DNA from: Bdellovibrionia bacterium
GTDB lineage: Bacteria; Bdellovibrionota; UBA1018
Direction: 5' to 3'
NCBI GenBank assembly: GCA_049424145.1
Contig: JBMSSC010000071.1
Span: 1-14,285 of the forward strand
DNA length: 14,285 bases
The notes under the pieces were generated by a model. The model was not told where the DNA came from. It worked only from the letters and a program-made list of their open reading frames with translations, and searched no databases. Shown here piece after piece: positions 817 to 14,285 of the stretch (position 1 is its first letter; each line of letters begins with the position of its first letter). A program made the translations under genes and the position numbers.

Positions 817-1686
817 TTACGAATTTTTGCAAATTGAAACATAGAAGTCTAAAATTCGATAGATTTGAGTCGTAAATAATCGGTCTCTCCAACGAATTTG
901 ACCTAAAAAACTAGGGTAAAAAGCAGTTGTTTTTTGATTCAAACTGAGCTTCACTTCTAGTTCTAAGAGGTCGACGCTTAAGCCTAGATCTAAGGCTTTG
1001 AGTAAGGCCTCTTTAGCAGTCCAGATCGCATAAAAAAGTGAAGGATCCGTTCGAATTTGGGCTTTCTCATGCTCAGTTAGCGCGATTGAAATTAAGTCCG
1101 AGTCAAGCGGGAGTTTGATTTTCTCAAGGTCGATTCCAATTTTTGGCTGAAGCCATCTGTGTTTACGTTCATCTCGAGTGTTCGATTGCTTGAGGCTTGG
1201 TTTTTTTTGGCAGGAGAGAAGTGCTGCGCAAGCCCATTCATTGGAATGAGAGATAGAAAGATCATTAAAAAATAGAGATAATATAGAATTGAAATTGGAC
1301 CTTTTATCTGGGTTGAGTTGAGCTTGAGGTCTTCCACTCGGTGAGTTGATGATTTCAAAGGAATGAAGGCAATCCTGCAGCAAAGAATCAGTTCTGGGGC
1401 AGTCAATAAAGAAAGTAAAAGCAGAGTGGTTCACCCATTGAAGTACGACTTTCTTTGCCGCAATTCGTCCGGCAAGCCATTCGTTTTGTCTTTTTTTTGT
1501 TTTCAGTCGATAAAAGAGATCCAGCTCGCGCGGGCTGAGCGAAAACCAGCTCAGGGTCTTCGAGCGCATCAGCTCATTGAGATCTGCTGGAATAGGAGTG
1601 AACGCCCATTCGAGGTAAGTGTTAGGTTCTAGGTCATGAAACTCAGGTTTAAATCCACTGACAGCTGGAGAATCCACAGTCCACAT
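817..1686 (-). CDS. Sfp-type 4'-phosphopantetheinyl transferase
   Basis: Motifs EWLAGRIAAKK, SGRP, SISHS, IGIDLE and FYAIWTAKEALLKALDLGL. The track ORF starts at 1842, 194 nt inside the ER gene. The ATG at 1686 (289 aa) or the GTG at 1677 is more plausible; the start is uncertain. Confidence 0.92.
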   Translation of the reverse strand: MWTVDSPAVSGFKPEFHDLEPNTYLEWAFTPIPADLNELMRSKTLSWFSLSPRELDLFYRLKTKKRQNEWLAGRIAAKKVVLQWVNHSAFTFFIDCPRTDSLLQDCLHSFEIINSPSGRPQAQLNPDKRSNFNSILSLFFNDLSISHSNEWACAALLSCQKKPSLKQSNTRDERKHRWLQPKIGIDLEKIKLPLDSDLISIALTEHEKAQIRTDPSLFYAIWTAKEALLKALDLGLSVDLLELEVKLSLNQKTTAFYPSFLGQIRWRDRLFTTQIYRILDFYVSICKNS

Positions 1687-2554
1687 AGAGGGTTTGACCC
1701 GTGATTTTTTTCGATCGATCGCTGCATAAAAATACGATCGTGTCGGCAACGTCCTGAGCTGTGATGGATTCCTGAATGGCGCTTTTGGACGCAAAGGCGG
1801 CTTGGATTTTTGTCCAGCAGGCTTTGGCAAATTGGAGCTCATCGGTTTCTTGTCCTAGTTCTTGTTCGACTTGTCTTAGGATTTCTAGAAGTTGTGGATC
1901 GGCCTGGAGGCGGAGGGCTTGTGGGTCACGCTTAAGTGCAATAATTTCCGAGAGCGAAGCGAGGGTTTCAATTGGGCCCGCTGAAACGGCATTGATCCGA
2001 ACCTTGTTTTCTCGTCCAAGCTCGAGGGCGAGGAGTTTAACGAGGCTCTCCAAAGCTGCTTTAGCCACTCCCATCATGCCATAAAGGGGCATGGCTCGCT
2101 GTGAGGCCTGAAAGGTGAGGGTAACAATACTCGATCGGGGCCTCAAGTAGGGACGAGCAAATCGAACGAGCTTGGCAAGAGAATGGGTGGAGAGCTCCAG
2201 GGTTTCGGTGAAGTCAGTTGAGCTCACCTCCGAGGCTGCGCAGGTGAAAAGGCTAGAAGGAGCATAGGCAATGGAGTGAATCAGTAGATCGAGGCCATCC
2301 TCTTGAAAGCGCCAGAAGAAGTCCTCAAGCTCATCTGGATTTAAGACATCACACCGTTGTGCTTGAACTCCGGGATACTTCTCCAACAGAGGGCTGATGC
2401 GGCTTAAGAACTTGTGCTGATAGCCAAGGGTGACTTGCGCGCCTGCTTGGTGAAGGCTCTGAGCAATCGCCCAAGCGATGCTTTGGTGATCAGCCACACC
2501 CAGCACGGCTGCTTTTTTTCCAAGTAGAGGAAGGTTCTCATTTGAGTGGTTCAT
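1649..2554 (-). CDS. fabI: FabI/InhA-type enoyl-ACP reductase (SDR) with extended substrate-binding loop
   Basis: GKKAAVLGVADHQSIAWAIA, LIHSIAYAP, catalytic Y158-xx-M-xxx-K165 (YGMMGVAK), RINAVSAGPIETLA and ITGQTLYVDCG. ATGA start/stop overlap with the upstream gene and a GGAG RBS. Confidence 0.9.
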   Translation of the reverse strand: MNHSNENLPLLGKKAAVLGVADHQSIAWAIAQSLHQAGAQVTLGYQHKFLSRISPLLEKYPGVQAQRCDVLNPDELEDFFWRFQEDGLDLLIHSIAYAPSSLFTCAASEVSSTDFTETLELSTHSLAKLVRFARPYLRPRSSIVTLTFQASQRAMPLYGMMGVAKAALESLVKLLALELGRENKVRINAVSAGPIETLASLSEIIALKRDPQALRLQADPQLLEILRQVEQELGQETDELQFAKACWTKIQAAFASKSAIQESITAQDVADTIVFLCSDRSKKITGQTLYVDCGFSSCQWI

Positions 2555-5500
2555 GTCAGAAGGCTCCGAAATGGGATCATTTTTAAGTCTGAAATTTCAG
2601 TGTGAAGCAGGAGATGATGAGGTGAGATCTGTGAAGGATCTGAAAACGGCGTTTTGGACTGATAGAGAAGGAGGTGAAACAAGCCAGGGGATGGGGTTCT
2701 TGCATGAAGGAGAAAAGGTCCTGTTCCTAAGCGTTCAGAAGCAGCCCCGGCTATGACCTTGAGTCTCCCAAGAGAGTGGGGAATGAGCGACTCTCCCTCT
2801 GTCTGACTATGAAGCCACGAGCAGAGGTGAAAGCCTGCTTCGTATGCCCAAGGCTCTGAGTGGTAGAGGTGTGCATCCGGCAGATGAACCAGTTGAGCGT
2901 GAGCCCAAGCTTCGGTTCGGTTCAGAGGTCGAATGGATCGTAAAACCTGAAACCTGGGGCCTAAGGGTATTTGAAGGCGCTCAGCACCGTAAATGGTTGA
3001 ACGCAGCCAATCCGATGACGAACGCATCCCTTCGGGTAAACGGGGAGACTCGCCCGGGCATTCTGGGGCCTGGCCTAAATCCACTTGGGCTTCAAACAGG
3101 GGGGTGAGCTGGGTCTTTTGCTGCACGAATAACTCCACTCGAACCGAGCGCAGGTGAGGTTGAAGGCCAAAAGACGCCTGAGCTTTAATAAAAACTTCGA
3201 CTGAGTGTTGATCGGGAATCTCTAGGCTTTGGAAAATTCTAAAATTTCTCACTCCAAGATACGGATGCTCGGGCAAAATAGCGCGTGCGGCTTGCACCAT
3301 CATTTCCAGTGCAAACGTAGCAGGCAAGAGCAGAACCTGGGAGAATCGATGATCTTCAAGCCAGGGGAGCTCGCCTACGCTGATGGAAGTGCAGGCGTGG
3401 AGGGAGGATCCAGGGTAGAAACGGTGGATTTTTTGAAGAAAGCAGAATGAATCCAAGACGTAGGAATCCTGGAATGCTGGATGGCTTGGTGCTTCTTGCT
3501 TAGGACCAATGCTTTGAGTCTCTCGTTGAATGGTGAGCCCAAGAGCGGGGTTCTCAGGAGTCTTAGATTCAGCGCCCTTCAGGGGAAGAGGAATGGGATC
3601 CTGCTTCTTTTTTTCAATCACCACTTCGCCTGCTTCTCGTCCATAAAGAACCTCCTCGAAAAAAGCCTGTACGCCCTCTGCAGGATTCAGTGGCTCAGCC
3701 TCAGTGCCGCGGATGAGTTCAGCCACTCCGCTGCGGGCTGCCATTCCCACCTCATCCCAAGCACCCCAGGAAAGAGCCAGCCATCGCGTCTCGGGATAGC
3801 GGTGGCCCAGATCCTCAAGAAGGCTCACTGACGCAGCATTAGCAGCAGCGTAGTCACATTGCCCTGGGTTGCCAAAAGTCCCCGCCACGGAACTAAAGAC
3901 ACAAAAAAGTTTTGCCTTTTTCTTGCCTCCCCATTCCCCGAGGTGCTTCAACCCTTGTACTTTGCTTTGGTAAACGCGTAAGAAGGAATCGAAGGTTTTT
4001 TTTTCAAACCTCTGGTCTTCGAGAATTCCTGCGGCATGGATCACCAGGTCGATGGACTCGGGATCGAGTCGTTCTGCTGTCTTGTTCCAGCATTCGTTTT
4101 GCGAGAGGTCACAGCTGATGTATTGAACCTGAGCTCCCGCCTTGAGCAAGGATTCGAGTTTGAGGATCACCTGAGGGTCACTGGCTGGGGTTCTCCCCAG
4201 GAGAATGATTCGCAGGTCGGGTGCGTGTTGAGTCAGAGCAAGAGCAATCTTGTGTCCCAATCCTCCTAATCCTCCTGAGATCAATACCGTACTTCTGGAG
4301 GTGATCTCAAAAGACGCAGAGAGGGAAAAATCAATCTCACTGGGGTGAAGCGTGGGAGTGAGAAATTCGGTCGGAGCCCCTCCGTCCGTGATCATGCGGA
4401 CTTCGGAAACACTTCCTCCAGTCAGGAGCTTCTTCAGTAGGGTAGGAATCGCCTCTGAGGAAGGCTGCAGCGCTTTTTGTTCTTCGACTTCAGCGCGGAG
4501 TTCTCGTTGCTCGATCCAGATGAACTGAGAAGTGGGGAATTCCCATCGGAGCGTTCTGAGTAGACCTTGGGTTGCTCCTGCGAGCTCAGTCATTGCCGAG
4601 AAATTCGGTGAGCCGAGAGGGGGAGTTTTTAAGATGACGGCCACCTGGGCTTGACCTTGGATTTCCTTTAATCGTCTGCTGAGCTCATGAAAGAGCGTGT
4701 CTAAAATGGATTGGGCATGAAGGAGGCCAGTGGCTGGGGGCTCGCAGAGAAAGACCAGTCTTGAGCTCGGGTGTGGTTTAAGAGCTGAGTCATCTTCTGC
4801 TGTTGGAATTTCCGAGGAAGCAGTGGGATGAAAGAAATTCACCGCTGCAAGCTGTCGCGTGAGGTGTTCGGTCCATGGGCTTAAGGCGCAAGTCAACGGG
4901 ATCACACCACCTAAGTAGGGTTCGACTAACGGGATTTCTCCTCGGCTTTGAAGGGGAGTGTCCCAGGTGCCTCTCAGTGATGACCAACAGACGATGGCTC
5001 GTTTTTTTTGGGCCCGCTTTTTCTCCTCTCGGGGAGCGAGGCTCCCTTTTTCAATGAATCGCACCCAATGTCCAAGCGTAGGGAAATCCTTAATACGGAG
5101 GCCAGATTCAAACTGGAGAGCAAAGTACTTTCTTAACTGACCTGCAATCTGTGCTTGCTTAATGGTGTCAATCCCCAGGTCGGCCTCCAGGTCGGCATCC
5201 CGTTGTAACAGATTCAGGTCGTAGCCCGTGTGCGCTTGAGTGATTAAGCAAATCAAATGGAAGATCTCTTCAGCGGTGTAGACCTTTCCTGGTACTGGCT
5301 CAGGGAGGCAGACTCCGCCTAAGACAGAGGAGGAAGAAAGACCTGAGAAGAGGCTGAAGGAGGCTTGGGGGCGTTCGATTCTTCTTTGAGCTAAACGAGG
5401 GAAAAATCCCTCGAGGGTTTCGAGGAACTCGTTGAGAGTCTTTGCTTTTTCTAGAGCACTTGCTAGCTCGGAGAACGAGGGTTGCATCCAGCGGTGGAGT

Positions 5501-5772
5501 GAGGTTTGAGCTTCCAAATGCGAGAGGAAGCGCGCTAGAACCTTTCTTCGTTGAATGGAGCTCACGCCCAGGTCCTCTTTTAGGCCAAGCGGTCCTAAGA
5601 GATTTTCTCGGCCATATCCAGTCACTTCCGCTAGGGCTAACAGCAGGAGTTCTTGAAAACCCATGGGAGGATCCCCGGGATGGGTCGTGGTGCAGCGCTG
5701 GGAATCAGTCCATGCTTCCTCTGCAACACGGGATTTGATGAGGCGAGGCGAGTGATCAAGGCTAGGTTGCAC
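2551..5772 (-). CDS. Iterative PKS/FAS subunit B: ACP-ACP-KR-DH (PfaA C-terminal-like)
   Basis: ACP1 (TGY...EDLGVSSI) and ACP2 (TGY...LEADLGIDTIKQ). KR: ISGGLGGLG, HAAGILED, SSVAGTFGNPGQCDYAAAN, WGAWDEVGM. DH: WLEDHRFSQVLLLP, GPRFQ. GTG start with AAGGA RBS 6 nt upstream, overlapping the upstream gene by 11 nt. An alternative ATG lies at 5664. Confidence 0.9.
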   Translation of the reverse strand: MQPSLDHSPRLIKSRVAEEAWTDSQRCTTTHPGDPPMGFQELLLLALAEVTGYGRENLLGPLGLKEDLGVSSIQRRKVLARFLSHLEAQTSLHRWMQPSFSELASALEKAKTLNEFLETLEGFFPRLAQRRIERPQASFSLFSGLSSSSVLGGVCLPEPVPGKVYTAEEIFHLICLITQAHTGYDLNLLQRDADLEADLGIDTIKQAQIAGQLRKYFALQFESGLRIKDFPTLGHWVRFIEKGSLAPREEKKRAQKKRAIVCWSSLRGTWDTPLQSRGEIPLVEPYLGGVIPLTCALSPWTEHLTRQLAAVNFFHPTASSEIPTAEDDSALKPHPSSRLVFLCEPPATGLLHAQSILDTLFHELSRRLKEIQGQAQVAVILKTPPLGSPNFSAMTELAGATQGLLRTLRWEFPTSQFIWIEQRELRAEVEEQKALQPSSEAIPTLLKKLLTGGSVSEVRMITDGGAPTEFLTPTLHPSEIDFSLSASFEITSRSTVLISGGLGGLGHKIALALTQHAPDLRIILLGRTPASDPQVILKLESLLKAGAQVQYISCDLSQNECWNKTAERLDPESIDLVIHAAGILEDQRFEKKTFDSFLRVYQSKVQGLKHLGEWGGKKKAKLFCVFSSVAGTFGNPGQCDYAAANAASVSLLEDLGHRYPETRWLALSWGAWDEVGMAARSGVAELIRGTEAEPLNPAEGVQAFFEEVLYGREAGEVVIEKKKQDPIPLPLKGAESKTPENPALGLTIQRETQSIGPKQEAPSHPAFQDSYVLDSFCFLQKIHRFYPGSSLHACTSISVGELPWLEDHRFSQVLLLPATFALEMMVQAARAILPEHPYLGVRNFRIFQSLEIPDQHSVEVFIKAQASFGLQPHLRSVRVELFVQQKTQLTPLFEAQVDLGQAPECPGESPRLPEGMRSSSDWLRSTIYGAERLQIPLGPRFQVLRSIRPLNRTEAWAHAQLVHLPDAHLYHSEPWAYEAGFHLCSWLHSQTEGESLIPHSLGRLKVIAGAASERLGTGPFLLHARTPSPGLFHLLLYQSKTPFSDPSQISPHHLLLHTEISDLKMIPFRSLLT

Positions 5773-8700
5773 GGTCGATCCTTGTGGAAAGCGTTCTTAA
5801 GGAGTCCATCCCACTGTCTGAGACAAAAGAGTGATGGGGTTTTGATTCTAAAATTTTCTCGGTAAATCGCGTGAGAATGGACTTGGGTCCGACCTCAACC
5901 CAGATGCGGACGCCCTGATGGAAGAGGGACTCGATGCATTGGGTCCAATTCATGGGGCTTCCGATTTGATTCACGAGGTTTTGACGGACCTCCGAACTGA
6001 GAGAGGAGGATTGGCGGTAGTCCAACTGAGTGAGGTTGCTCATGACGGAAACCCGAGGCGAAGTGATGGGGAGTTGGTCAAAAGCCATTCGGGCTTGGTC
6101 TTCTCCAAGGGCTTTGGCTAAGGGAGAGTGCCAGGCAACGTGGATACCCAGAGGCTCGGAGTCAATTTTGTGTTGGGAGAATAGAAGCCTGAGCGGGGTG
6201 ATGAGCTCAGTGGGAGCTGCGATCACGGTTTGGGTTGAGCAGTTTTTCACGGCCAGGGTGGTCTGAGCGCTCAGGGGTTGAGACCCTTGCAGAATCGCTT
6301 GCGTCTGAGGAGCTGAGCAGAAAACAGCCATCATCCGGCCCGTGTCGCGTCCTTGGTTTTGGTGGGATTTAAAAATCCATCCCCGCTGGTAAGTGGCCAC
6401 TAACGCCTCTTCAAAGGGCATCATCCCTCCTGCGACGCATGCGGCAAATTCTCCTACGCTGTGGCCTAAGTACACATCGCCTGATACGCCCAGTTCGCGA
6501 AGGAGACGGTAGTAGGCCAGGTTGAATGTCAGCAGAACCGGTTGAACCATATGAGTCTCGAGCAAATTCTTCTGAACCGATTCGCGCGAGCTCCACGAAG
6601 TGAAAACTAGTTTCTCCACGGTTTGACCCAGCAGAGGTTCAAGCACTGAGTTGGCCTCTTGGATCGTTCGGCGAAAGACAGGGAATCGCTCATAGAAGGC
6701 TCGACCCATGTCGGGATAAGGGGAGCCGTGTCCGGGGAATAAAAAGGCAATCCTGGGTTTTCTTCGGTGAGTTTTCCGGCGCGATGGACTGAAGTGTGGC
6801 TGGATGGGTTTTTCTCCAACAATCAGGCTCCAGTTGGTTCCCCCGAAGCCAAACGCGTGGACCGCAGCCTGGCGATTGCTTCCCTGATGGCCCGGAGCCC
6901 AAGGGATGAGGTTCTGTGCCACCTCTAAACCTCGTGCCTCGAGCTGAAGTGCAGGGTGGACTGCGTTTTCTACTCTCATGGGAGGGATTTGTTTTTTCTT
7001 TAGGCCTAAGATCACTTTCAGCAGAGCCACGGCCCCTGCAGCCCCGAGCGTATGACCCACCTGGGATTTTACGGATCCAATGAGTAACGGAGGGGAGGAC
7101 CTTGGGCCATACACTTCTGAAAGAGCGCTGAGCTCGATGGAATCCCCTACAGGCGTTCCCGTTGCGTGGCACTCCACGTATTGAATCTGATCGGCTGATC
7201 CTTGAGCGCTCTCCAAAGCGCGTCTCATGGCTAAGGTTTGCCCGAAAACATCGGGTGCCATCATGGAGTGACCCCTGCCGTCGCTGGAGGCTCCGATGCC
7301 GAGAAGAACGGCGTGTACAGGGTCCCCATCTAAAAGCGCATCATCGAGTCGTTTTAGAATCAAAGTGGCCGTTGCTTCGCCCAGTAATATCCCATTGGCT
7401 TGCGTGTCAAAGGGTCTGCTTCCATCGGGCGACAGAGCATGGCATTGAGAGAATAAAATCTGAGTTCCTGGCGTGAGGCTGACGCCTGCTCCCCCGGCCA
7501 GGATCACGCGATGTTTTCTCATTTGTAAGCTGTGCATGGCTGCTCCGATGGCGGCTAGAGAAGAAGCACAGGCTGCATCGAGCGTGGAAAAGGAGCCCTT
7601 TTGAAGATCGAGAGTTTTTGCCACTCGGGCTACGACGGAGTGGAATTGAAGAGACGCTAAGGATTCCTCTGAGGGAAATAGGGACTTGAGTCCCAGTTGG
7701 GAAATGAGACTTTGAAACAAGGCCTCCTTCTCCGTAATGGAGATGACTTTCACTTGAGGAAGATAAAATTCGAGTCGAAACAGGAGGATCTGAAGGGAAA
7801 GCATCCAGCCTGCTTGATTGCAGCTTTTGGACTCCCCAATGAGGATTTCATCGATGGGAAGGGTGCTGAGTTCGGGGCTAGATCCAGGAGGGAGCCCGAA
7901 TGGGTTTTTCGACGTCCCTAAGCCCCAGTGCTTAAGGCTCTGGAGGGTGGAGTCCAGAAATTGCCGTTGTATGGGATCGAGAATGCTTAGAACCGATGGC
8001 GGGATTCCTAGCCCAAGCTCCGGTAGAGTGGGAGTCCAGGTGAGTGCCGCTTGATCGGCTCGGGAGAGTGCCAGGTTCGTGGGTGCGTTGGGGTGCTTCT
8101 GGGAGTGAACAAAGAGCTCTTTGTGTTCTGCGTAAAAAGAGTCTGAAAGCGGTGCGATGAAGGACTTTTGAGATACGAGGTTCTCCCAGAAGTTCTCGGG
8201 ATTTGAGCTTCCGGGAAGATTGGCGCCATATCCGATAACAGCAATGGGAGTTGGTTTTTGTTTGGGTCGCTGTTCTAAGCTGCTCCAGCGATTCTTCAGG
8301 ACAAAATTTTTGGGGTTCCATTTTTCAATAATCAGATGGTAGGCCGATCCCCATCCTCCAAAACTGCTCAGGGCAGCTTGAATAGGCTTGTCAGGGCTCT
8401 CACCATGAGATCGGGGATGATCGGTGACCCAGGAAAACGGCAGCGGTGAAGCTGGGGGGAGTTCTGGAAACCACACGTCTTGATTGAATGCCAAGAGCAC
8501 CTTGGCTAAAGAGGCCGCTGCGTGGGCTCCTGCCATAAAGCCGTGTTGACTCGCCAGGTGTCCAAGCTGAAGGTCCGGGTGTTTGCCGTACACCGATTCA
8601 AGTGCTTGCCGTTCTGCCTGATCCTCCCAGGGGACTCCAGATCCTTGGGTCTCCAGATGATGAATCTGCTGGGGATCGCTTTGGGCTTGATGAAGAGCCG

Positions 8701-10966
8701 ACTGCATGGCTGAAATTAACGCTTGCGGGGAGGTCTCTTCAATTCCAAAGCTTCGCCCTGAGCTGCTTTGACCGAGGCCTCGGATCAATCCCCAAATGGG
8801 ATCTCCTGCTTGTAAGGCTGAGGAGAGTTTTTTTAAGACAAACAGTCCGCATCCTTCAGAGGGAAGAATCCCTGAGCCTGAAAATGGAGAGTTCGGAGCG
8901 CCGCCCAATCGCTCCTCTAAAAAGAGGAGAAACCAATCTAACGGGTCAATGAGGGTGTGGGCTCCTCCGGTGATGACGGCCTCAGCCCCGTCCGTGCGAA
9001 GTAGCGTGATGGCGTGATCCAAGGCCGCCAATGTGGAGGAGTGTCCGGAGTTCACCACGTAGCTTGGCCCGTGAAAATCAAAGTGACTCATCACGCGACC
9101 GACAGCGACATTGAGGAGCCCTCCTGCAAGCGAGTCCTCCGTGCAGGCGATGGAGGGAGGGGCCATCAGTTGATCGAGGTGAGAAAGCTCCTCGGGGGAG
9201 AATCTTGGGAGACCCAAAGAGGATTGGGATTTGAGCAGGGATCCAATGAGTCGGAAGCCCAGTTGCTGATTTTGCAGATCGTCGACTTGCAAAAACGATT
9301 GACTGCAGCCTAAGACGAAGGCGGTTTTTAGCGGGGGGAGGCCCGAGGGAGGGATATCACTGAGGGCCTGATGAGCAGTGAGCAAAACGAGTTTTTGAAT
9401 TCGATCCATGGCCTGAACGGTCAGAGGAGGAATCTTAAAGATTTCAGGATCCAAGTTGAGGGGATCGAGAAATCCTCCCCACTTCATGGGGCGCGCGGGG
9501 GTGGGACCGATCTTGGATTTTTCGAATCCCATGCGATCGAAGAACGCCTGCTCCCAATCTTTCCAGGCGTGAGGCGAGAGGGTGCGACGGGCGGAACGGA
9601 GGTTCTGCTCAAAGGCCCTTAGGTTTAAAGCTTGTGGAAACCTGCCTCCGAGTCCAACAATCGCAATGGGCTCGTTCTTGGGCTCTGGGGCTGACCTCGG
9701 GGCGCGTGACCCGTTTGAACTGACTTTGGAGGCGGCAAGGGGGGGAGGCAGGGGAGGGGCAAACGGGCAAGAGCCCAGCGGGGGGCGGGGTTCTTTCAAT
9801 CTCCCCCATTGCGTTCGAATACAAAAATCCACCAAAACGGGGAGTGAATCCCGGATATTCGGAACCTCTAGTCCTGAGTCTTTTAAAGCCTCCCTGAGTT
9901 GTGAGTTGTCGTAGACGTAGGGATCAAACGCATAAGGAAGCAGTCGCATGAAGACCTGCCAGGATTCCCGCAAAATCGGATCCGCTTGAGCTAGGCTTGC
10001 TTTGAATTCCTCGGGCTTCACATCGGGAATCTCTTGCCACTCGGGTTGAGGTGGGACTTGAAGTCGAGATCTTTGGGCGTGGGCTTGAAAAACTTGAGCG
10101 CAGCGGCTGAGCCCCTCTTGAAGCCGGGTGGCTTGGTGGCCTGAGGTGAGGTGGTAGATCTGAAATCCCGGGTGCACGGGGCGTGTCCGCAAAACGAACA
10201 GGGCGTTAGTCACCCAATCCACGGTGACTGCATCAATTCGACTGCCTTGCGGTAAAACAATGGGATTGATCTTGCCCACAACCTCATAGAGGAAGAAGCG
10301 GACTCCGAGATAAAAGCTATCGAGTTTGGGCGTCCATCCGGTTTTTGAGTCTCCTCCGACCATCGATGCGCGATAAATGACGACGGGGATGAAGTGGCTT
10401 TGTTCGATGAGAACCGCTTCAGCTTCTACTTTGGTTTGTTCATAGGTGTTTTTAAACTCACGTGGAAATGTTGGAGGCAGTTCTTGAGCCTGTCCAGAAG
10501 GATCGATGGGTGCGACTGTGAATGTGCTTAAGTAGTGAAAACCGAGGAAAGATCCACTCTGCTGAGCGGCTTTTGCAAGTTCACAGAGGTTTTTAGTCGA
10601 GAGCACTTGGGAAATTCGTGCTTGATCGAGGGGTTGATCGAATCGAACGTCGGCAGCCAAATGGTAGATTGCTGAGACCTTGCGAGCTAAAGTCTCATAA
10701 TCGGCCTCTGATAGACCTAAATGGGGGTCTTTGAGGTCGCAGGCAAGAAAGCTCAGTCGATTCAGCACGGGTTTGGGATCGGAAAGCTCACGAAAGAGTT
10801 CTTGAGCGAGGGTATCAAATTTCTGGGCAGCAGTTTGGCTTTGACCCTGAGTCCCATCGCGAATGAGAAGAATCACTTGGCAATGGGGATCCCAAAGGAG
10901 GAGTCTTCTTAAGAATTCGCTTCCAATAAATCCTGTGGCTCCAGTGATGAGAACGCAATGCTGCAT
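5762..10966 (-). CDS. Iterative PKS/FAS subunit A: thioester reductase - inactive KS - KS - AT
   Basis: N-terminal extended SDR (ITGATGFIG, HLAADVRF, YLST, YEQTK, YRASMVGGDSKTG) and a Pro-rich linker. KS1 lacks the catalytic triad. KS2 has DAAC(1133), HATGT(1267), KSQVGH(1305) and AFGFGGTN. AT has FPGHGS, GHSVG(S1503) and AWHS. AGGA RBS 7 nt before the ATG. Confidence 0.93.
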   Translation of the reverse strand: MQHCVLITGATGFIGSEFLRRLLLWDPHCQVILLIRDGTQGQSQTAAQKFDTLAQELFRELSDPKPVLNRLSFLACDLKDPHLGLSEADYETLARKVSAIYHLAADVRFDQPLDQARISQVLSTKNLCELAKAAQQSGSFLGFHYLSTFTVAPIDPSGQAQELPPTFPREFKNTYEQTKVEAEAVLIEQSHFIPVVIYRASMVGGDSKTGWTPKLDSFYLGVRFFLYEVVGKINPIVLPQGSRIDAVTVDWVTNALFVLRTRPVHPGFQIYHLTSGHQATRLQEGLSRCAQVFQAHAQRSRLQVPPQPEWQEIPDVKPEEFKASLAQADPILRESWQVFMRLLPYAFDPYVYDNSQLREALKDSGLEVPNIRDSLPVLVDFCIRTQWGRLKEPRPPLGSCPFAPPLPPPLAASKVSSNGSRAPRSAPEPKNEPIAIVGLGGRFPQALNLRAFEQNLRSARRTLSPHAWKDWEQAFFDRMGFEKSKIGPTPARPMKWGGFLDPLNLDPEIFKIPPLTVQAMDRIQKLVLLTAHQALSDIPPSGLPPLKTAFVLGCSQSFLQVDDLQNQQLGFRLIGSLLKSQSSLGLPRFSPEELSHLDQLMAPPSIACTEDSLAGGLLNVAVGRVMSHFDFHGPSYVVNSGHSSTLAALDHAITLLRTDGAEAVITGGAHTLIDPLDWFLLFLEERLGGAPNSPFSGSGILPSEGCGLFVLKKLSSALQAGDPIWGLIRGLGQSSSGRSFGIEETSPQALISAMQSALHQAQSDPQQIHHLETQGSGVPWEDQAERQALESVYGKHPDLQLGHLASQHGFMAGAHAAASLAKVLLAFNQDVWFPELPPASPLPFSWVTDHPRSHGESPDKPIQAALSSFGGWGSAYHLIIEKWNPKNFVLKNRWSSLEQRPKQKPTPIAVIGYGANLPGSSNPENFWENLVSQKSFIAPLSDSFYAEHKELFVHSQKHPNAPTNLALSRADQAALTWTPTLPELGLGIPPSVLSILDPIQRQFLDSTLQSLKHWGLGTSKNPFGLPPGSSPELSTLPIDEILIGESKSCNQAGWMLSLQILLFRLEFYLPQVKVISITEKEALFQSLISQLGLKSLFPSEESLASLQFHSVVARVAKTLDLQKGSFSTLDAACASSLAAIGAAMHSLQMRKHRVILAGGAGVSLTPGTQILFSQCHALSPDGSRPFDTQANGILLGEATATLILKRLDDALLDGDPVHAVLLGIGASSDGRGHSMMAPDVFGQTLAMRRALESAQGSADQIQYVECHATGTPVGDSIELSALSEVYGPRSSPPLLIGSVKSQVGHTLGAAGAVALLKVILGLKKKQIPPMRVENAVHPALQLEARGLEVAQNLIPWAPGHQGSNRQAAVHAFGFGGTNWSLIVGEKPIQPHFSPSRRKTHRRKPRIAFLFPGHGSPYPDMGRAFYERFPVFRRTIQEANSVLEPLLGQTVEKLVFTSWSSRESVQKNLLETHMVQPVLLTFNLAYYRLLRELGVSGDVYLGHSVGEFAACVAGGMMPFEEALVATYQRGWIFKSHQNQGRDTGRMMAVFCSAPQTQAILQGSQPLSAQTTLAVKNCSTQTVIAAPTELITPLRLLFSQHKIDSEPLGIHVAWHSPLAKALGEDQARMAFDQLPITSPRVSVMSNLTQLDYRQSSSLSSEVRQNLVNQIGSPMNWTQCIESLFHQGVRIWVEVGPKSILTRFTEKILESKPHHSFVSDSGMDSLRTLSTRIDRAT
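5800..6751 (-). other. Domain: acyltransferase, probably malonyl-CoA:ACP
   Basis: IAFLFPGHGS, GHSVGE, conserved Arg in YQRG, VAWHS (AFHS-like) and WVEVGP. Boundaries approximate. Confidence 0.88.
6812..8251 (-). other. Domain: active ketosynthase
   Basis: Intact Cys-His-His triad in DAACASS, ECHATGTPVGD and GSVKSQVGH. Boundaries approximate. Confidence 0.9.
8321..9673 (-). other. Domain: degenerate ketosynthase (KS0 / chain-length-factor-like)
   Basis: Begins EPIAIVGLGGRFP and retains MDRIQ, EGCG and SFGGWG. The active-site motifs read NSGHSS, ETQGSG and ASQHGF. Boundaries approximate. Confidence 0.85.
9790..10966 (-). other. Domain: N-terminal thioester/fatty-acyl reductase (NAD_binding_4 / FAR-like extended SDR)
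   Basis: TGATGFIG Rossmann motif, DL..P.LGLS...Y..L, ST catalytic pair, Y175-EQT-K179 (10430-10444). Boundaries approximate. Confidence 0.85.
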
Positions 10967-11054
10967 GGCTGAGTCCTGCTTGGTTGCTCACCATCGCACA
11001 AAATGCGGGAGCTCGCAATTTGACTTCACTTGAAAAAAACGAGAGTCTGAACTC
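10967..11054. promoter_or_regulatory. 88-bp divergent promoter region between the PKS operon and the lgt-like gene
   Basis: Head-to-head starts at 10966 (-) and 11055 (+). No clean sigma70 -35/-10 pair was identified. Confidence 0.5.
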
Positions 11055-11885
11055 ATGCGTGCAATTCTTTTTGTGATCGCGGGTCGCCCTGTGATTAGTT
11101 GGGCATTCTTTGCTGTTGTGGGGATGTGGGCCGCCTTTTTTAAGATTCAAGCAGAGCTCAGACGAAAAGGAATCTCTGACCTTCGTTTGATGGCCCTATT
11201 TTTAAGTGGCACCGTGGCGTGGTTTTTGGGCGCACGCCTGGCGCAGGGGCTGACCGTCGATCCGTCGTTTTCAATCAACCAGTTTTCTCTCTGGTGGAGA
11301 GCATCCACAGGCTATGTTTTGTATGGTGGGGTATTGGGTGTCTTCCTGGTGGGGTGGGTGTTTTGGTGGTTTTTGGGCTTAAAACGGGCATTATCTTTAA
11401 GTGAGTTTTGGGACTTTGGAGCCGCAGCCTTAGGGTGGGCTCTATTTTGGGGGCGGATTGGGTGTGGATTTTACGGGTGCTGCTATGGAACACCGGCAGG
11501 GCCTTGGCCTGGTTATGAGCTGCGTCCTGAGTATTGGGATTTTCAGAACCGTGAGTTTCCCTGGACTCTTCAAGGAGTGAGGCTTCATCCCACTCCTTTT
11601 TACGAAGCGCTGGGGATTTTTCTTTGTCTCGTGATCATCAGTCGTCTTCAACGCTGGGGAAGGGGGCAAGTCCGGCTCGTGCCGCCCGGGGTTTCTGGAT
11701 GGCTGTTTTGGTTTTTGTATGGCGTGCTTCGATTTTTTTTGGAATGGATTCGATTAGATCTCAGGGGCATTGGATTTGCTGGGCTTTCACCCAGTCAATG
11801 GGTTTCGATCGGGCTCATGGGGATTGCGCCGGGTTTGATGGTTTTTGAGTGGTATCGAAATCAGGTTTCCACAGAGGGCCGTTGA
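11055..11885 (+). CDS. lgt: Prolipoprotein diacylglyceryl transferase (Lgt)-family membrane protein
   Basis: Multiple hydrophobic helices. Motifs GARL, LYGG, WD..A......WGRIGCGFYGCCYG, HPTPFYE, YGVLRFFLEWIR.D and LSPSQWVS. Possibly a divergent paralogue. Confidence 0.85.
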   Translation: MRAILFVIAGRPVISWAFFAVVGMWAAFFKIQAELRRKGISDLRLMALFLSGTVAWFLGARLAQGLTVDPSFSINQFSLWWRASTGYVLYGGVLGVFLVGWVFWWFLGLKRALSLSEFWDFGAAALGWALFWGRIGCGFYGCCYGTPAGPWPGYELRPEYWDFQNREFPWTLQGVRLHPTPFYEALGIFLCLVIISRLQRWGRGQVRLVPPGVSGWLFWFLYGVLRFFLEWIRLDLRGIGFAGLSPSQWVSIGLMGIAPGLMVFEWYRNQVSTEGR

Positions 11886-12738
11886 GCCTTGGCGCTGATG
11901 CCTGGGGTTTTGCCTCCTTCCGCACGATTAGGCGATAGGTGAGTCGGTGGGAGAAGATCTCGTGGAGGAGTGAGTCAAGAAGCAGTCCTGCCAACACGTC
12001 AAACAGGGAGTGTTGCTTGAGGGTGAGCGTGGAGAAGCAAATGAGCACGCACCAGAGAATCATCAGGGGAAAGTAGGGTTTTTGATCCTCCCTAAAGCCT
12101 AAGGCGATTTGAAAAGCGAGGCTCACATGAAGGCTGGGCAGACAGTTCATGGGTCGATCCAGTTGCCAGAGTCCATTGACCATTTTTTTAGTCCACAGGG
12201 ATCCAAGTGTGAAAAGGCTCCAAGGATTTTGGGGATCAGGTGAGATCTGAGAGAGAAACTCCTCTCGCGGATAAGTCGTGGGATAAACCCAAAAAATGAA
12301 GCAACTGCAGATCACTAAGGTTGCGAAAGAGTAAAGATGGATGTGCAGACTCACTAAGCAGCGATTCAGAGCAAATGCCGTGAGCACGAGCAGGAGCTCG
12401 CTGTCATAAATCCAAACCGACTCTGGGATGAAAGGAATTCTTTGATCCAGCTTGCCCAGAAAAACGGGATGAGGCGTTTTTTCAATGCCATGATTTGTGG
12501 CAAGATATGCGCTCAAGCCAAGAGCTAGTAATGTGGGTCCTGCGATCCATTTGTACTGCCAAGGGATCCAAAGAGGCAGCAGTCCGTCCTCGTGAATTCG
12601 ATCCCAGAGAAAAATGGGAGGAGATTTACCGTTTTCTTGGCGTGGTGAGATCGGATTTTTTTTCGTTTTGTTTTTTGTCTTGGATGACCGGTGGAGTCTT
12701 TTTTGATCCAGGAAACTCAAGGACCTCAGTAGTGCCAT
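11815..12738 (-). CDS. PAP2-superfamily membrane enzyme, Aur1/inositol-phosphorylceramide-synthase-like
   Basis: LDQRIPF...WIY, YPTTYPR, D.PMNCLPSLH (C2) and STLTLKQHSLFDVLAG (C3 His/Asp), with several TM segments. GGAGG RBS 9 nt before the ATG at 12738. Confidence 0.82.
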   Translation of the reverse strand: MALLRSLSFLDQKRLHRSSKTKNKTKKNPISPRQENGKSPPIFLWDRIHEDGLLPLWIPWQYKWIAGPTLLALGLSAYLATNHGIEKTPHPVFLGKLDQRIPFIPESVWIYDSELLLVLTAFALNRCLVSLHIHLYSFATLVICSCFIFWVYPTTYPREEFLSQISPDPQNPWSLFTLGSLWTKKMVNGLWQLDRPMNCLPSLHVSLAFQIALGFREDQKPYFPLMILWCVLICFSTLTLKQHSLFDVLAGLLLDSLLHEIFSHRLTYRLIVRKEAKPQASAPRLNGPLWKPDFDTTQKPSNPAQSP

Positions 12739-13339
12739 TGCCTTTGACCTCCGTCTCAGGCGAAGTTGTAGAGGGGGAGGGATCAGGGATCAAGCGATTT
12801 TTTTTTGGCTTTTCAAATTCGATTTCTTTAGGAATTTGACTTCCATCTAAGATGGTTTCAGCTCGAGGAGACTGAGGAAGTCGGGGGGGTGATTTTTTTG
12901 TCTGAGTCTCGGTGTCTTGTGGATCGGGCTGATTCAAAGAATCAGCACTTGAACCTTTTGAGCCGGCTTCAGGCTGGCTCCCCATCAAACCCAAAAGCGA
13001 TTTGGGGATAAATTCTCGAGAGAGGCTTTTAAAAATGGTTGATGCGATATCGCTTTGAGCTTGGCGATAAAATTGGGTGTATTTTTCATTCATCGAGCTG
13101 GCGTAGTTGAGAATTGCAGGTTCCAATAGCGTCTTTTTGAGTTGATTGATCTTTTCAGGCGTTCTCGAATCCCCAAGCTTGTTGAGTTCCGAGTAGTACT
13201 GATGGAAGGCTTGGTCTCTTGCTTTTAGGGCCTCAGTTGCCGATCGGGCGTGGGCAATTTCTAGGTCAAACAAGACACAGAGGATGCCTGAGCTGACTAA
13301 GGCGAAGACTTTGAGTAAGAAACGAAGGTAAAAAGACAT
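12626..13339 (-). CDS. Hypothetical exported protein with helical N-domain and low-complexity P/S/K/T-rich tail
   Basis: 237-aa ORF with an N-terminal hydrophobic stretch ending AHA, an amphipathic helical segment and a disordered-looking C-terminal half. It starts at an AT-rich intergenic region. Confidence 0.7.
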   Translation of the reverse strand: MSFYLRFLLKVFALVSSGILCVLFDLEIAHARSATEALKARDQAFHQYYSELNKLGDSRTPEKINQLKKTLLEPAILNYASSMNEKYTQFYRQAQSDIASTIFKSLSREFIPKSLLGLMGSQPEAGSKGSSADSLNQPDPQDTETQTKKSPPRLPQSPRAETILDGSQIPKEIEFEKPKKNRLIPDPSPSTTSPETEVKGNGTTEVLEFPGSKKTPPVIQDKKQNEKKSDLTTPRKR

Positions 13340-13417
13340 AAGTATTCGGTTTATTCTGTTTCGCTAGATTCTTCTTTTTATTATTTTAATATAGTGTATT
13401 ATAAATGTATAGTTTAT
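13340..13417. promoter_or_regulatory. Very AT-rich divergent promoter region
   Basis: 78-bp AT-rich gap between head-to-head ORFs, with several TATAAT-like hexamers on both strands. Confidence 0.5.
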
Positions 13418-14285
13418 ATGTTGAAATTACTTTTTTTATTCCTTTTGATAGGCTCTGAGAAAGTGGTCTTAGCTCAAGCTCCGGTTGGATCAGCCGGAGG
13501 AAGTTCTTTAGGAAGTCCTACGCAGTCTGAGTCGATTGTTCCGGGTTCGTTTGTTCAGGCACCCTGCCTGGACTTAGATGAGAAGCAAGCTTTGTCGCCT
13601 CCTTTGTCCGCTCTTTTTATTCCCAAATGTTCGGAGTTTTTGAACAATCAGACCAAGGATGGATTTTTGAGTCGCTATAGTCAGTTCTTTCGCGAGCGAA
13701 TCCAATGTTTTTATGAGGGGACGATTATTGAACTCTCTAAAGATGTGACTCTGATTTCGGGCCCTCAGAGCTGCTCACTGGGGAAGCCAATCTACCCTCC
13801 TCCTCTACCTAAGGCTGTGGTTTGTTCCATTGCTGATGGAGAGGGAGATCGTTTAGGGTCTTCATCGGGAGCAACCACCCCGAACTCCTTAAAGGAATCC
13901 TGTGGTGTTCTTGCTGACAGCTCGGGCCAGTGGGAGCGAGCACAGGAATTGGGTCTTGAGGTTCAAGCAACGAAGTTTTATAGAAACCAGCTCATCCAAG
14001 AGCTGCTGACTCGTAAGAGTTTTCAGCTCACCTCAGCCATGTGTCAATCCCAAGCCGACGATTACAGTCGTCTGTGGTTAGAAACCAAGGATCTGGTTCA
14101 AAAGAGCTTATTGAAGTTCTCCTCTGATCAGTTTGAAGCCTTTCGACAGTCGAAGTCCAATCTGTGTGCTGTGGAGTCGATTCAGCTGAAAAATGGAGCG
14201 GTTGCACCTCCGAGTCAAGCCTCTTGTTACTTAAAAAGTCTGATGGATCGGCTGGCTTTGGTTTTTTTCTACCTAGTTGAGTGTG
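13418..14285 (+). CDS. Secreted Cys-rich hypothetical protein (partial, runs off window)
   Basis: Manual translation from the ATG at 13418 gives MLKLLFLFLLIGSEKVVLA|QAPVGSAGG..., open for 289 codons to the window end, with 10 Cys. Absent from the ORF track because there is no stop in the window. Confidence 0.8.
   Translation, partial: MLKLLFLFLLIGSEKVVLAQAPVGSAGGSSLGSPTQSESIVPGSFVQAPCLDLDEKQALSPPLSALFIPKCSEFLNNQTKDGFLSRYSQFFRERIQCFYEGTIIELSKDVTLISGPQSCSLGKPIYPPPLPKAVVCSIADGEGDRLGSSSGATTPNSLKESCGVLADSSGQWERAQELGLEVQATKFYRNQLIQELLTRKSFQLTSAMCQSQADDYSRLWLETKDLVQKSLLKFSSDQFEAFRQSKSNLCAVESIQLKNGAVAPPSQASCYLKSLMDRLALVFFYLVEC

Follow-up and report, generated by a model that had tools for sequence, protein, structure and literature searches.

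The 14,285-nucleotide contig analysed here in its entirety (hereafter the window; Bdellovibrionia bacterium, GenBank assembly GCA_049424145.1, contig JBMSSC010000071.1) carries a putative four-gene lipid-synthase operon, the first protein of which, P0001, opens with a thioester/fatty-acyl reductase (R) domain placed in front of its condensing domains. The resulting order R-KS0-KS-AT, in which KS0 is a ketosynthase (KS) without its active-site Cys and AT is an acyltransferase, is a rare, conserved layout of a known kind of machine. Reductive release decides whether a lipid synthase delivers an acid or an aldehyde or alcohol, and it is usually carried out by a domain immediately following the carrier or by a protein of its own; a conserved family with the R domain ahead of the condensing subunit would add a third way to wire this step. 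The fused synthase probably makes a long-chain fatty aldehyde or alcohol, and its four genes would form a compact, directly expressible and testable route to long-chain alcohols.

P0001 is a single uninterrupted, stop-free open reading frame (ORF) of 1734 aa on the minus strand (10966..5762), and the open frame around it was read as 1741 aa in the genome search. Pfam placed the R domain, the Cys-less KS, the active KS and the AT in this order and in the same frame. The R domain spans 9770..10966 (minus strand, residues 1-399), as delimited by Pfam PF07993, Protein Data Bank (PDB) matches and an AlphaFold2 (AF2) model compared by Foldseek, with positions 9790-10966 encoding residues 1-392. Its Rossmann motif TGATGFIG lies at residues 8-15 (10922-10945, minus strand), HYLST at residues 144-148 contains S147-T148, and YEQTK at residues 175-179 supplies the catalytic Tyr (Y175) and the Lys of Y-x3-K (K179). 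Behind the C-terminal substrate subdomain, the domain ends in a family tail, W387-G...R394-P-P-L-G398, with RPPLGS at residues 394-399 (9770-9787, minus strand). An original prediction, made from the sequence alone, had described an intact fatty acyl reductase (FAR)/thioester-reductase domain opening a KS-AT protein, and both its motifs and its Y175 numbering held.

The identity of this domain was supported by several lines of comparison. Pfam NAD_binding_4 (PF07993) matched residues 7-255 with an E-value of 1.2e-49 (169.2 bits against a cut-off of 20.1), and the best sequence relatives in the PDB were the R domain of MxaA (4u7w, E 1.9e-21), a Streptomyces polyketide synthase (PKS) thioreductase (8v1x), the R domain of Mycobacterium tuberculosis Nrp and carboxylic acid reductase (CAR). 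An AF2 model built from an alignment of 60 relatives (A3) reached a mean predicted local distance difference test score (pLDDT) of 94.1 and showed the two-subdomain fold of solved R domains (Rossmann plus C-terminal substrate subdomain); Foldseek returned 4u7w at the top (E 1.5e-22, query-normalised template modelling score 0.73 over about 400 columns), followed by 8v1x, the rice fatty acyl reductase DPW and CAR R domains (entries 8v1x, 7eoz and 5msu). The TGxxGxxG, S-T and YxxxK motifs were kept in all seven fused proteins described below, and within A3 Y175 was invariant while T148 and K179 were at least 90% conserved. The Sterile domain of FAR proper (PF03015) gave no match in P0001 at E <= 0.01, and among the NCBIfam models PRK07201, which we take to be a short-chain dehydrogenase/reductase (SDR) family with a FAR-like N-terminal half, scored about as well as the megasynthase-type thioester reductase model TIGR01746 (E 8e-37 versus 7e-36). 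With the R domain at the very start of P0001 (residue 1) and no PP-binding domain anywhere in that protein, the domain does not stand C-terminal to a carrier. By sequence and fold, it is thus a thioester/fatty-acyl reductase with predicted reduction activity, and its sequence sets it apart from canonical megasynthase R domains.

The same comparisons leave almost no room for a sugar-nucleotide epimerase/dehydratase-type SDR, the clustering that the original prediction had named as its own refutation. Secondary Pfam matches to Epimerase (E 4e-11), GDP_Man_Dehyd and RmlD_sub_bind would point that way; NAD_binding_4 is better by 38 orders of magnitude, the top sequence and fold matches are all R domains, thioester reductases, FARs or CARs, with sugar epimerases and dehydratases ranking lower in Foldseek (about 1e-15), and Pfam found no sugar-pathway gene in the window. 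Judged from these scores, the Epimerase match is the usual superfamily overlap.

The R-KS fusion is not an assembly artefact, a judgement based on the recurrence of the architecture in homologs, a contig over the junction and flank synteny with a genome of the same family. The full R-KS-KS-AT architecture was present in six other metagenomic proteins (P0003, P0032, P0033, P0038, P0151 and P0154), which together with P0001 form seven distinct cluster representatives, all metagenomic, at 35-50% identity, each with the R domain at residues 1 to about 400 followed by KS0-KS-AT; their clusters contain just one or two members each. P0003 (1801 aa) aligned with P0001 over its full length at 50% identity, P0032, P0033 and P0038 carried NAD_binding_4 at residues 7-254 and then KS, KS and AT, and P0151 and P0154 matched the R domain at residues 1-390 in the exhaustive representative search and aligned with P0001 at full length. 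Two of the six carry JGI labels, which are generic and automatic. The statement in the original prediction that an N-terminal FAR-like domain does not occur in front of a KS was therefore overturned by at least six other database proteins.

Read-level assemblies agreed. In run X1, possibly the source sample, a 4030-base contig spanned positions 7945-11974, junction included, with one base different, and DNA that is near-identical or matches at 95-99% came from runs X2-X4 of two further studies, which also show depth over the bin 9541-10017. Among the pieces listed for the four runs (three studies), no joint, loose end or indel fell within 9600-10966, although the longest pieces, which were the ones listed ahead of 83 others, included no independent record bridging the whole junction. 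No RNA dataset was among the runs listed with matching sequence, which has no bearing on expression. Synteny of the window flanks extends to G006, which belongs to the same family and has counterparts of Lgt2 (47% identity), the PAP2_3 protein (35%, E 5e-29), orf297 (E 3e-20) and orf237 (E 9e-6). An artefact of assembly, or of binning the contig into this genome, could draw on the fact that the window is an entire 14.3-kb contig of a 193-contig metagenome-assembled genome and that the GC content of the cluster, 53.1%, lies about 1.9 SD above that of the genome, 49.1%. Set against six independent proteins of the same architecture, the X1 contig without joints or loose ends near 9670-9800, and the syntenic counterparts of Lgt2, PAP2_3, orf297 and orf237 in G006, such an origin is extremely improbable, and the artefact test set by the original prediction came out in favour of a genuine fusion.

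The fused gene is thinly distributed. It was absent from 40 relatives, where the best other match covered residues 905-1712 only, and from the 400 other genomes of the phylum, so that the cluster occurs in 1 of 401; eight of those 400 have only stand-alone reductases, at 25-34% identity. Scanning one genome per species with alignment A1 and two peptide patterns yielded 129 stretches and three confirmed relatives, none of them fused, and a scan of metagenome contigs reduced 386 stretches to 13 loci, all encoding stand-alone reductases at 26-30% identity. Such patchiness suggests that the gene was acquired horizontally. Composition taken alone was rejected as a sign of horizontal transfer, +1.9 SD in GC being too weak.

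We then asked where the R domain came from. An exhaustive search returned 10304 proteins at E <= 0.001, and almost all of the best 150 of these, which were listed, were free-standing proteins of about 365-420 aa. A profile built on the seven fused domains served to excise R domains from 183 proteins, and a tree was computed on 76 rows, namely all 7 fused domains, 45 stand-alone proteins (those scoring best), 21 R domains from the C-termini of megasynthases and 3 other long proteins. The fused domains fell in a 13-row clade (SH-aLRT support 95) nested among stand-alone reductases of about 380-400 aa, and a branch with SH-aLRT support of 99 set the fused and stand-alone side apart from all but one of the 21 C-terminal megasynthase R domains; the exception, the long-branched P0162, landed on the stand-alone side. 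When three fragments (P0163, P0156 and P0159) and nine long-branch rows were left out, the megasynthase R group formed one side of a branch with support of 100 in the 64-row tree. Constraining the seven fused domains together on these 64 rows gave a likelihood 4.8 units above the free search and an approximately unbiased test value (p-AU) of 0.606, so a single fusion event, as judged from the tree, is not rejected.

The boundary of the domain is consistent with this descent. Eight stand-alone relatives (P0150, P0152, P0153, P0155, P0157, P0158, P0160 and P0161) end 3-19 residues past a W-G-x4-P-R-P-x-L tail, which reads RPPL in six of the eight, and P0155 lies on a 385-kb contig and is therefore not a truncated gene. 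What had been described as a Pro-rich linker was thus correct in part: residues 400-431 (9674..9769, minus strand) form a variable Pro/Ser-rich linker that is not alignable between P0001 and P0003 and differs in length across the seven members, while its supposed start, W-G-x4-P-R-P-P-L-G, is the conserved tail of the stand-alone family. On this phylogeny, the R domain descends from free-standing reductases and not from C-terminal megasynthase R domains. In the simplest history, a stand-alone reductase gene would have lost its stop and joined a downstream KS0-KS-AT gene, and the domain would be N-terminal because it began as a free-standing gene joined to the 5' end of that gene.

The neighbourhoods of the stand-alone relatives bear on what the fused domain reduces. 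Acyl-AMP/CoA ligases lie directly downstream of the reductase in loci L020, L021 and L024, and directly upstream of it in four metagenome loci are genes that fuse PilZ to a phosphopantetheine carrier (L022, 2212-2973; L023, 397-1077; L026, 1178-1882; L028, 9311-9994), with FadL further upstream in two. Further neighbours are a wax-ester synthase (L029), a class-III aminotransferase (L019), a KS with FabA (L027) and an extra Lgt-family gene (L015). These surroundings point to acyl-thioester reduction, by enzymes that act in trans on fatty acyl groups bound to a carrier or to CoA. Two side observations concern this group. The PilZ-carrier fusion would place a domain resembling a cyclic di-GMP sensor on a carrier protein, and P0245 (775 aa) joins a stand-alone-type reductase domain (residues 13-254) to Sulfotransfer_3 (residues 466-711), a layout suggesting that one protein forms an alcohol by reduction and then sulfates it.

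With such relatives, the R domain could be a fatty acyl-CoA or discrete-carrier reductase that is merely fused to the synthase and acts on free thioesters, for example after transfer of the chain to CoA. Its membership in a clade of stand-alone reductases, several of them beside the ligases of L020, L021 and L024, the near-equal scores of PRK07201 and TIGR01746, and the use of acyl-CoAs in vitro reported for Zmn14 (PMC5811116, as far as its accessible text goes) are in line with this. We nevertheless consider it rather unlikely, as Pfam found no acyl-CoA ligase, thioesterase or acyltransferase from chain to CoA in the window, as the fusion has been kept across seven proteins sharing 35-50% identity, which speaks for coupling of function, and as other stand-alone relatives stand directly behind carrier proteins (L022, L023, L026 and L028).

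The rest of the synthase is that of a small iterative enzyme. KS0 (8327..9673, minus strand; about residues 432-880) starts with EPIAIVG at residue 432, matches Pfam ketoacyl-synt at residues 432-717 and resembles a chain-length factor (CLF), with the active-site Cys replaced by His (NSGHSS, residue 642) and the His of EAHGTG replaced by Gln. Across the seven fused proteins, the Cys position of the first KS is occupied by H, D, D, D, N, D and N (alignment A2); the R-less homolog P0037 has the Cys in both KS units. The second KS (6797..8254, minus strand; about residues 905-1390) is catalytically complete, with a full Cys-His-His set that is invariant in A2 (DAACASS, C1133; CHATGT, H1267; VGHTLG, H1305), a Pfam Ketoacyl-synt_C match at residues 1218-1330 and NCBIfam PfaA/FabF-type matches at residues 1109-1391. 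The AT (5831..6754, minus strand; about residues 1405-1712) has GHSVGE at residue 1501 and matches Pfam Acyl_transf_1 at residues 1408-1709 (E 1.5e-27) and NCBIfam FabD TIGR00128 (E 1.2e-41, under the cut-off of that model). The earlier architecture of R, KS, KS and AT was accordingly right in its order and is refined by the absence of Cys from the first KS in all seven proteins, giving R-KS0(CLF-like)-KS-AT.

Three further genes complete the set of four adjacent co-directional minus-strand genes, which runs from 10966 to about 817. Subunit B, P0002 (2551..5772, minus strand; 1073 aa), overlaps the end of the P0001 gene by 11 bases if a GTG start is used and has the order carrier, ketoreductase (KR), dehydratase (DH); the carrier lies at residues 183-240 (5053-5226, minus strand; Pfam PP-binding, E 7.7e-5 on the isolated stretch), the KR at residues 495-673 (Pfam KR, E 9e-38) and a PKS-type DH at residues 795-1010 (PKS_DH_N, PS-DH). 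The X2 and X4 contigs have an in-frame 18-base insertion behind position 3481, between KR and DH, a strain-level length variant. Overlapping P0002 by 4 bases is a FabI-type enoyl-acyl carrier protein reductase (ER; 1649..2554, minus strand; Pfam adh_short_C2, E 2.9e-59; NCBIfam FabI models, E 1e-57, under their cut-offs), and a second FabI-like gene at 33% identity lies on contig C83. The last gene encodes an Sfp-type 4'-phosphopantetheinyl transferase (PPTase; 817..1842, minus strand; Pfam ACPS, E 8.5e-15, and 4PPT_N), the start of which is uncertain, as about 190 bases of its ORF lie within the ER gene; positions 817-1648 have a GC content of 41.8% (GC at third codon positions, GC3, 0.41) against 51-54% in the three upstream synthase genes, and the HetI model NF042922 reached 21.5 bits, its cut-off being 370. 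Promoters and terminators were predicted no more often than by chance (8 versus 7.5 and 20 versus 19.9 expected). Thioesterase families found no match among the 9 window ORFs scanned by Pfam, in agreement with the original prediction that the window has none.

With respect to family, the PfaA model TIGR02813 gave 401 bits for P0001 and 126.5 bits for P0002, both short of its cut-off of 1010.1. Polyunsaturated fatty acid (PUFA) synthases of the Pfa type are described in the available portion of PMC3098273 as having KS followed by CLF, a FabA-type DH pair, a PfaD-type ER and tandem acyl carrier proteins (ACPs) with LGIDS; the present operon departs from this layout, with the Cys-less KS first, a PKS-type DH, a FabI-type SDR as ER and one recognisable carrier with LGIDT. 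The same portion of PMC3098273 defines a broad secondary-lipid synthase by at least one KS, an ACP and a KR, with combinations of AT, CLF, DH, ER and PPTase in the cluster, and the operon fits this definition with KS0, KS, AT, carrier, KR, DH, ER and PPTase in four genes. By its domain content, it would be a small iterative type I fatty acid synthase/PKS of the PUFA-synthase or "secondary lipid" kind, distributed over four proteins.

We consider it fairly likely, though well short of certain, that the R domain releases the finished saturated chain from the P0002 carrier as an aldehyde or alcohol. In such a cycle, the AT would load malonyl units, the KS0/KS pair would elongate the chain, and KR, DH and ER would fully reduce each unit to leave an acyl chain on the P0002 carrier, which should be saturated since all three activities are present. 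The N-terminal R domain, beside the KS0/KS core where carriers must dock, would then use NAD(P)H and its Ser/Thr-Tyr-Lys centre to reduce the thioester, and the chain would leave as a fatty aldehyde, or as a fatty alcohol after a second hydride. Reductive release of this kind would replace the missing thioesterase. While the identity of the R domain, its intact motifs, its fold, the conservation of the fusion and its stand-alone descent are established here, we infer the substrate (the P0002 carrier), the cofactor, the transfer of two or four electrons and the chain length. The original prediction had the domain acting in trans on ACPs of subunit B with release of an aldehyde or alcohol; this is still the best, inferred, reading, for a single Thr-type carrier only.

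Several points weigh against such a release. TIGR01746 gave the R domain 124.2 bits, below its cut-off of 213.35, and since acyl-CoA may be the substrate of the nearest stand-alone relatives, it could be that of the fused domain as well. For the proposed link from the R domain to the P0002 carrier, a complex prediction of the R domain (from A3) with P0002 carrier residues 160-250 scored 0.00, evidence in neither direction. A word-based search with P0002 found just 14 other proteins, all distant (26-37% identity over 12-29% of the query), and none of them lies on a contig that matches a fused homolog in length. Its sole Pfam-supported carrier has Thr203 at the phosphopantetheine position, and an ACP-like stretch with DLGVSSI at about residues 37-130 has no PP-binding match even at E <= 1. 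The loaded carrier on which the R domain would act is thus itself presumed, from the all-Thr carrier arrays of other proteins described next, and is the main point of doubt in this reading.

Thr203, in DLGIDTIKQ (codon ACC, 5164-5166, minus strand), aligns with the phosphopantetheine Ser of the PigH ACPs and of bacterial ACPs. Contigs from X1, X2 and X3 cover its codon with no difference, so it is not a sequencing error. The DLGVSSI stretch is weakly similar to the Pfam-supported carrier stretch (E 0.001), and the plural "ACPs of subunit B" in the original prediction overstated the case, one Pfam-supported carrier being present, with Thr and not Ser at the attachment position. Thr occupied this position in 63 of 117 motif-bearing proteins and 173 of 250 motif instances, in a biased sample made up of the best matches to this query. 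Entire tandem arrays were all-Thr, with the consensus EADLGIDTVKQAE, and the Thr set included KS-KS-AT relatives of P0001 (P0035, P0036 and P0041-P0043) together with many PfaA-like proteins some 2800 aa long. The carrier of P0039 has Ser. That synthases intact in other respects bear arrays made up of Thr carriers throughout suggests a working attachment site at Thr. Our literature searches found no relevant paper on Thr-type carriers, and the PfaA-like synthases that bear them are a lead possibly mattering more than the fusion itself. As a separate observation, P0070, P0112 and P0134 in this set have a fused PPTase domain.

A Thr in place of the attachment Ser, a KS0 without its Cys and its first catalytic His, and a cluster found in just 1 of 401 genomes of the phylum could instead be the marks of a decaying or non-functional cluster, with one KS lacking Cys, a carrier lacking Ser and an R domain left without substrate. 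However, the Cys-less first KS is common to all seven fused homologs, as in a chain-length factor, the Thr site recurs in the 63 of 117 proteins including whole tandem arrays, and all long ORFs are open. Across near-identical and 95-99% identical strains from three studies, no frame-breaking indel was listed for P0001, and the one in P0002 is the in-frame insertion of 18 bases. Decay is thus an improbable account, and we retain reductive release from the P0002 carrier as the favoured one.

The genes beyond the operon may point towards membrane lipids. Across 88 bases, a second Lgt paralog, Lgt2, diverges from the operon (11055..11885, plus strand; Pfam LGT, E 1.5e-27); it is 31% identical to the housekeeping Lgt (G000:C1:17327-18046) and was found in 2 of the 401 genomes of the phylum, this genome (G000) and G006 only. 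It is followed by a PAP2_3-family membrane protein (11815..12738, minus strand; Pfam PAP2_3, E 2.3e-10), possibly part of the same lipid island, and by a divergent pair with no family match, the Pro/Lys-rich orf237 (12626-13339, minus strand) and orf297 with a signal-like N-terminus (13394-14284, plus strand). This pair is conserved beside the Lgt2 island of G006 as ORFs of 227 and 782 aa (locus L043, 5788-8871). That island (G006:C3, 8873-13251) encodes Lgt2 with a PPTase on one strand; on the other are a radical-SAM/SPASM gene and an NAD_binding_4 reductase of the stand-alone type, 26% identical to the R domain of the window, and PAP2_3 comes after these. The two cassettes differ in make-up but keep similar company. 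In an Omnitrophota genome (L015, 9941-13356), another extra Lgt-family gene has its start overlapped by a reductase gene and is followed by a kinase of the diacylglycerol kinase (DAGK) type.

The association of a reductase with Lgt and PAP2_3 genes is thus thin but repeated, in two genomes of one family and one distant case. These gene neighbourhoods suggest that the reductase product may be passed to the membrane group-transferases Lgt2 and PAP2_3, and their recurrence hints at an undescribed lipid class in uncultured bacteria, a second lead that may outweigh the fusion in importance. A search of this genome for the wax ester synthase/diacylglycerol acyltransferase (WS/DGAT) family gave no match, the control likewise being without match anywhere. 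Carried further, and apart from our main conclusion, the window could be a self-contained island for an undescribed membrane lipid, in which Thr-phosphopantetheinylated carriers, served by their own PPTase, would be used to build a long saturated chain, the fused R domain would release it as a fatty alcohol, and Lgt2 together with PAP2_3, resembling inositol phosphorylceramide (IPC) synthase, would add a glyceryl or phospho head group from phospholipid; the reductase/Lgt-paralog pair would then be a general module and Thr carriers would be widespread. We hold this wider scheme to be unlikely as a whole.

Reductive release in secondary-lipid synthases is already known from Zmn14 and from the heterocyst thioester reductase, as far as the consulted portions of these sources go, and what we did not find described is the R domain before KS0-KS-AT, an arrangement seen in public protein sets. 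In our literature search for N-terminal reductase domains, no KS fusion was described and PigE alone was relevant, and the available portion of PMC3098273 does not mention reductase domains. PigE of the prodigiosin pathway resembles P0001 in having an N-terminal thioester reductase domain in a fusion protein; it differs in its pathway and in that the domain is fused to a transaminase and not to a ketosynthase, according to the accessible part of PMC8341465. Another N-terminal arrangement is found in P0013, which has the architecture NAD_binding_4-Sterile-AMP-ACP-acyltransferase and bears out the mention in the original prediction of an N-terminal FAR-like domain in an ElbD-type ether-lipid enzyme. 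Like P0001, it starts with a FAR-type NAD_binding_4 in a multidomain lipid enzyme, with a carrier domain downstream; unlike P0001, it has Sterile, adenylation and acyltransferase domains and neither KS nor AT, and it is likened to ElbD by architecture alone. The R domain of MxaA, from the myxalamid hybrid of PKS and nonribosomal peptide synthetase (4u7w/4w4t), is the closest solved structure and shares the two-subdomain extended-SDR layout and the Thr-Tyr-Lys centre, whereas it stands C-terminal behind a carrier, is about 24% identical and lies on the opposite side of the branch with 99-100% support.

The heterocyst glycolipid (Hgl) and zeamine synthases come nearer as whole systems. Both hglC and pfaBC are given as KS-CLF-AT in the available portion of PMC3098273, and a thioester reductase (TER) domain is listed for the heterocyst glycolipid synthase in that of PMC11804610. 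As far as these portions go, the shared features are a KS-CLF-AT subunit, a long-chain alcohol formed by thioester reduction and a dedicated PPTase. In the present operon, by contrast, the Cys-less KS comes first, the R domain is fused in front and no glycosyltransferase is nearby; the Hgl TER presumably sits with a carrier domain on its own protein, HglB. In zeamine biosynthesis of Serratia plymuthica, the accessible text of PMC5811116 describes Zmn14 as an NADH-preferring stand-alone thioester reductase that can go on to the alcohol and for which chain release from the ACP of the PUFA-like synthase Zmn10-13 is proposed. By this description, and not by sequence, the two systems share an iterative PUFA-like type I synthase, reductive release by a thioester reductase not located behind the carrier, and the lack of a thioesterase; they differ in that Zmn14 is a separate protein, while here the R domain is fused N-terminally to KS0-KS-AT, and in that zeamine has aminotransferase steps and a PfaD-type ER, while here there are a FabI-type ER and no aminotransferase. 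By analogy, the zeamine system would be the closest characterised parallel to the fused synthase of the window.

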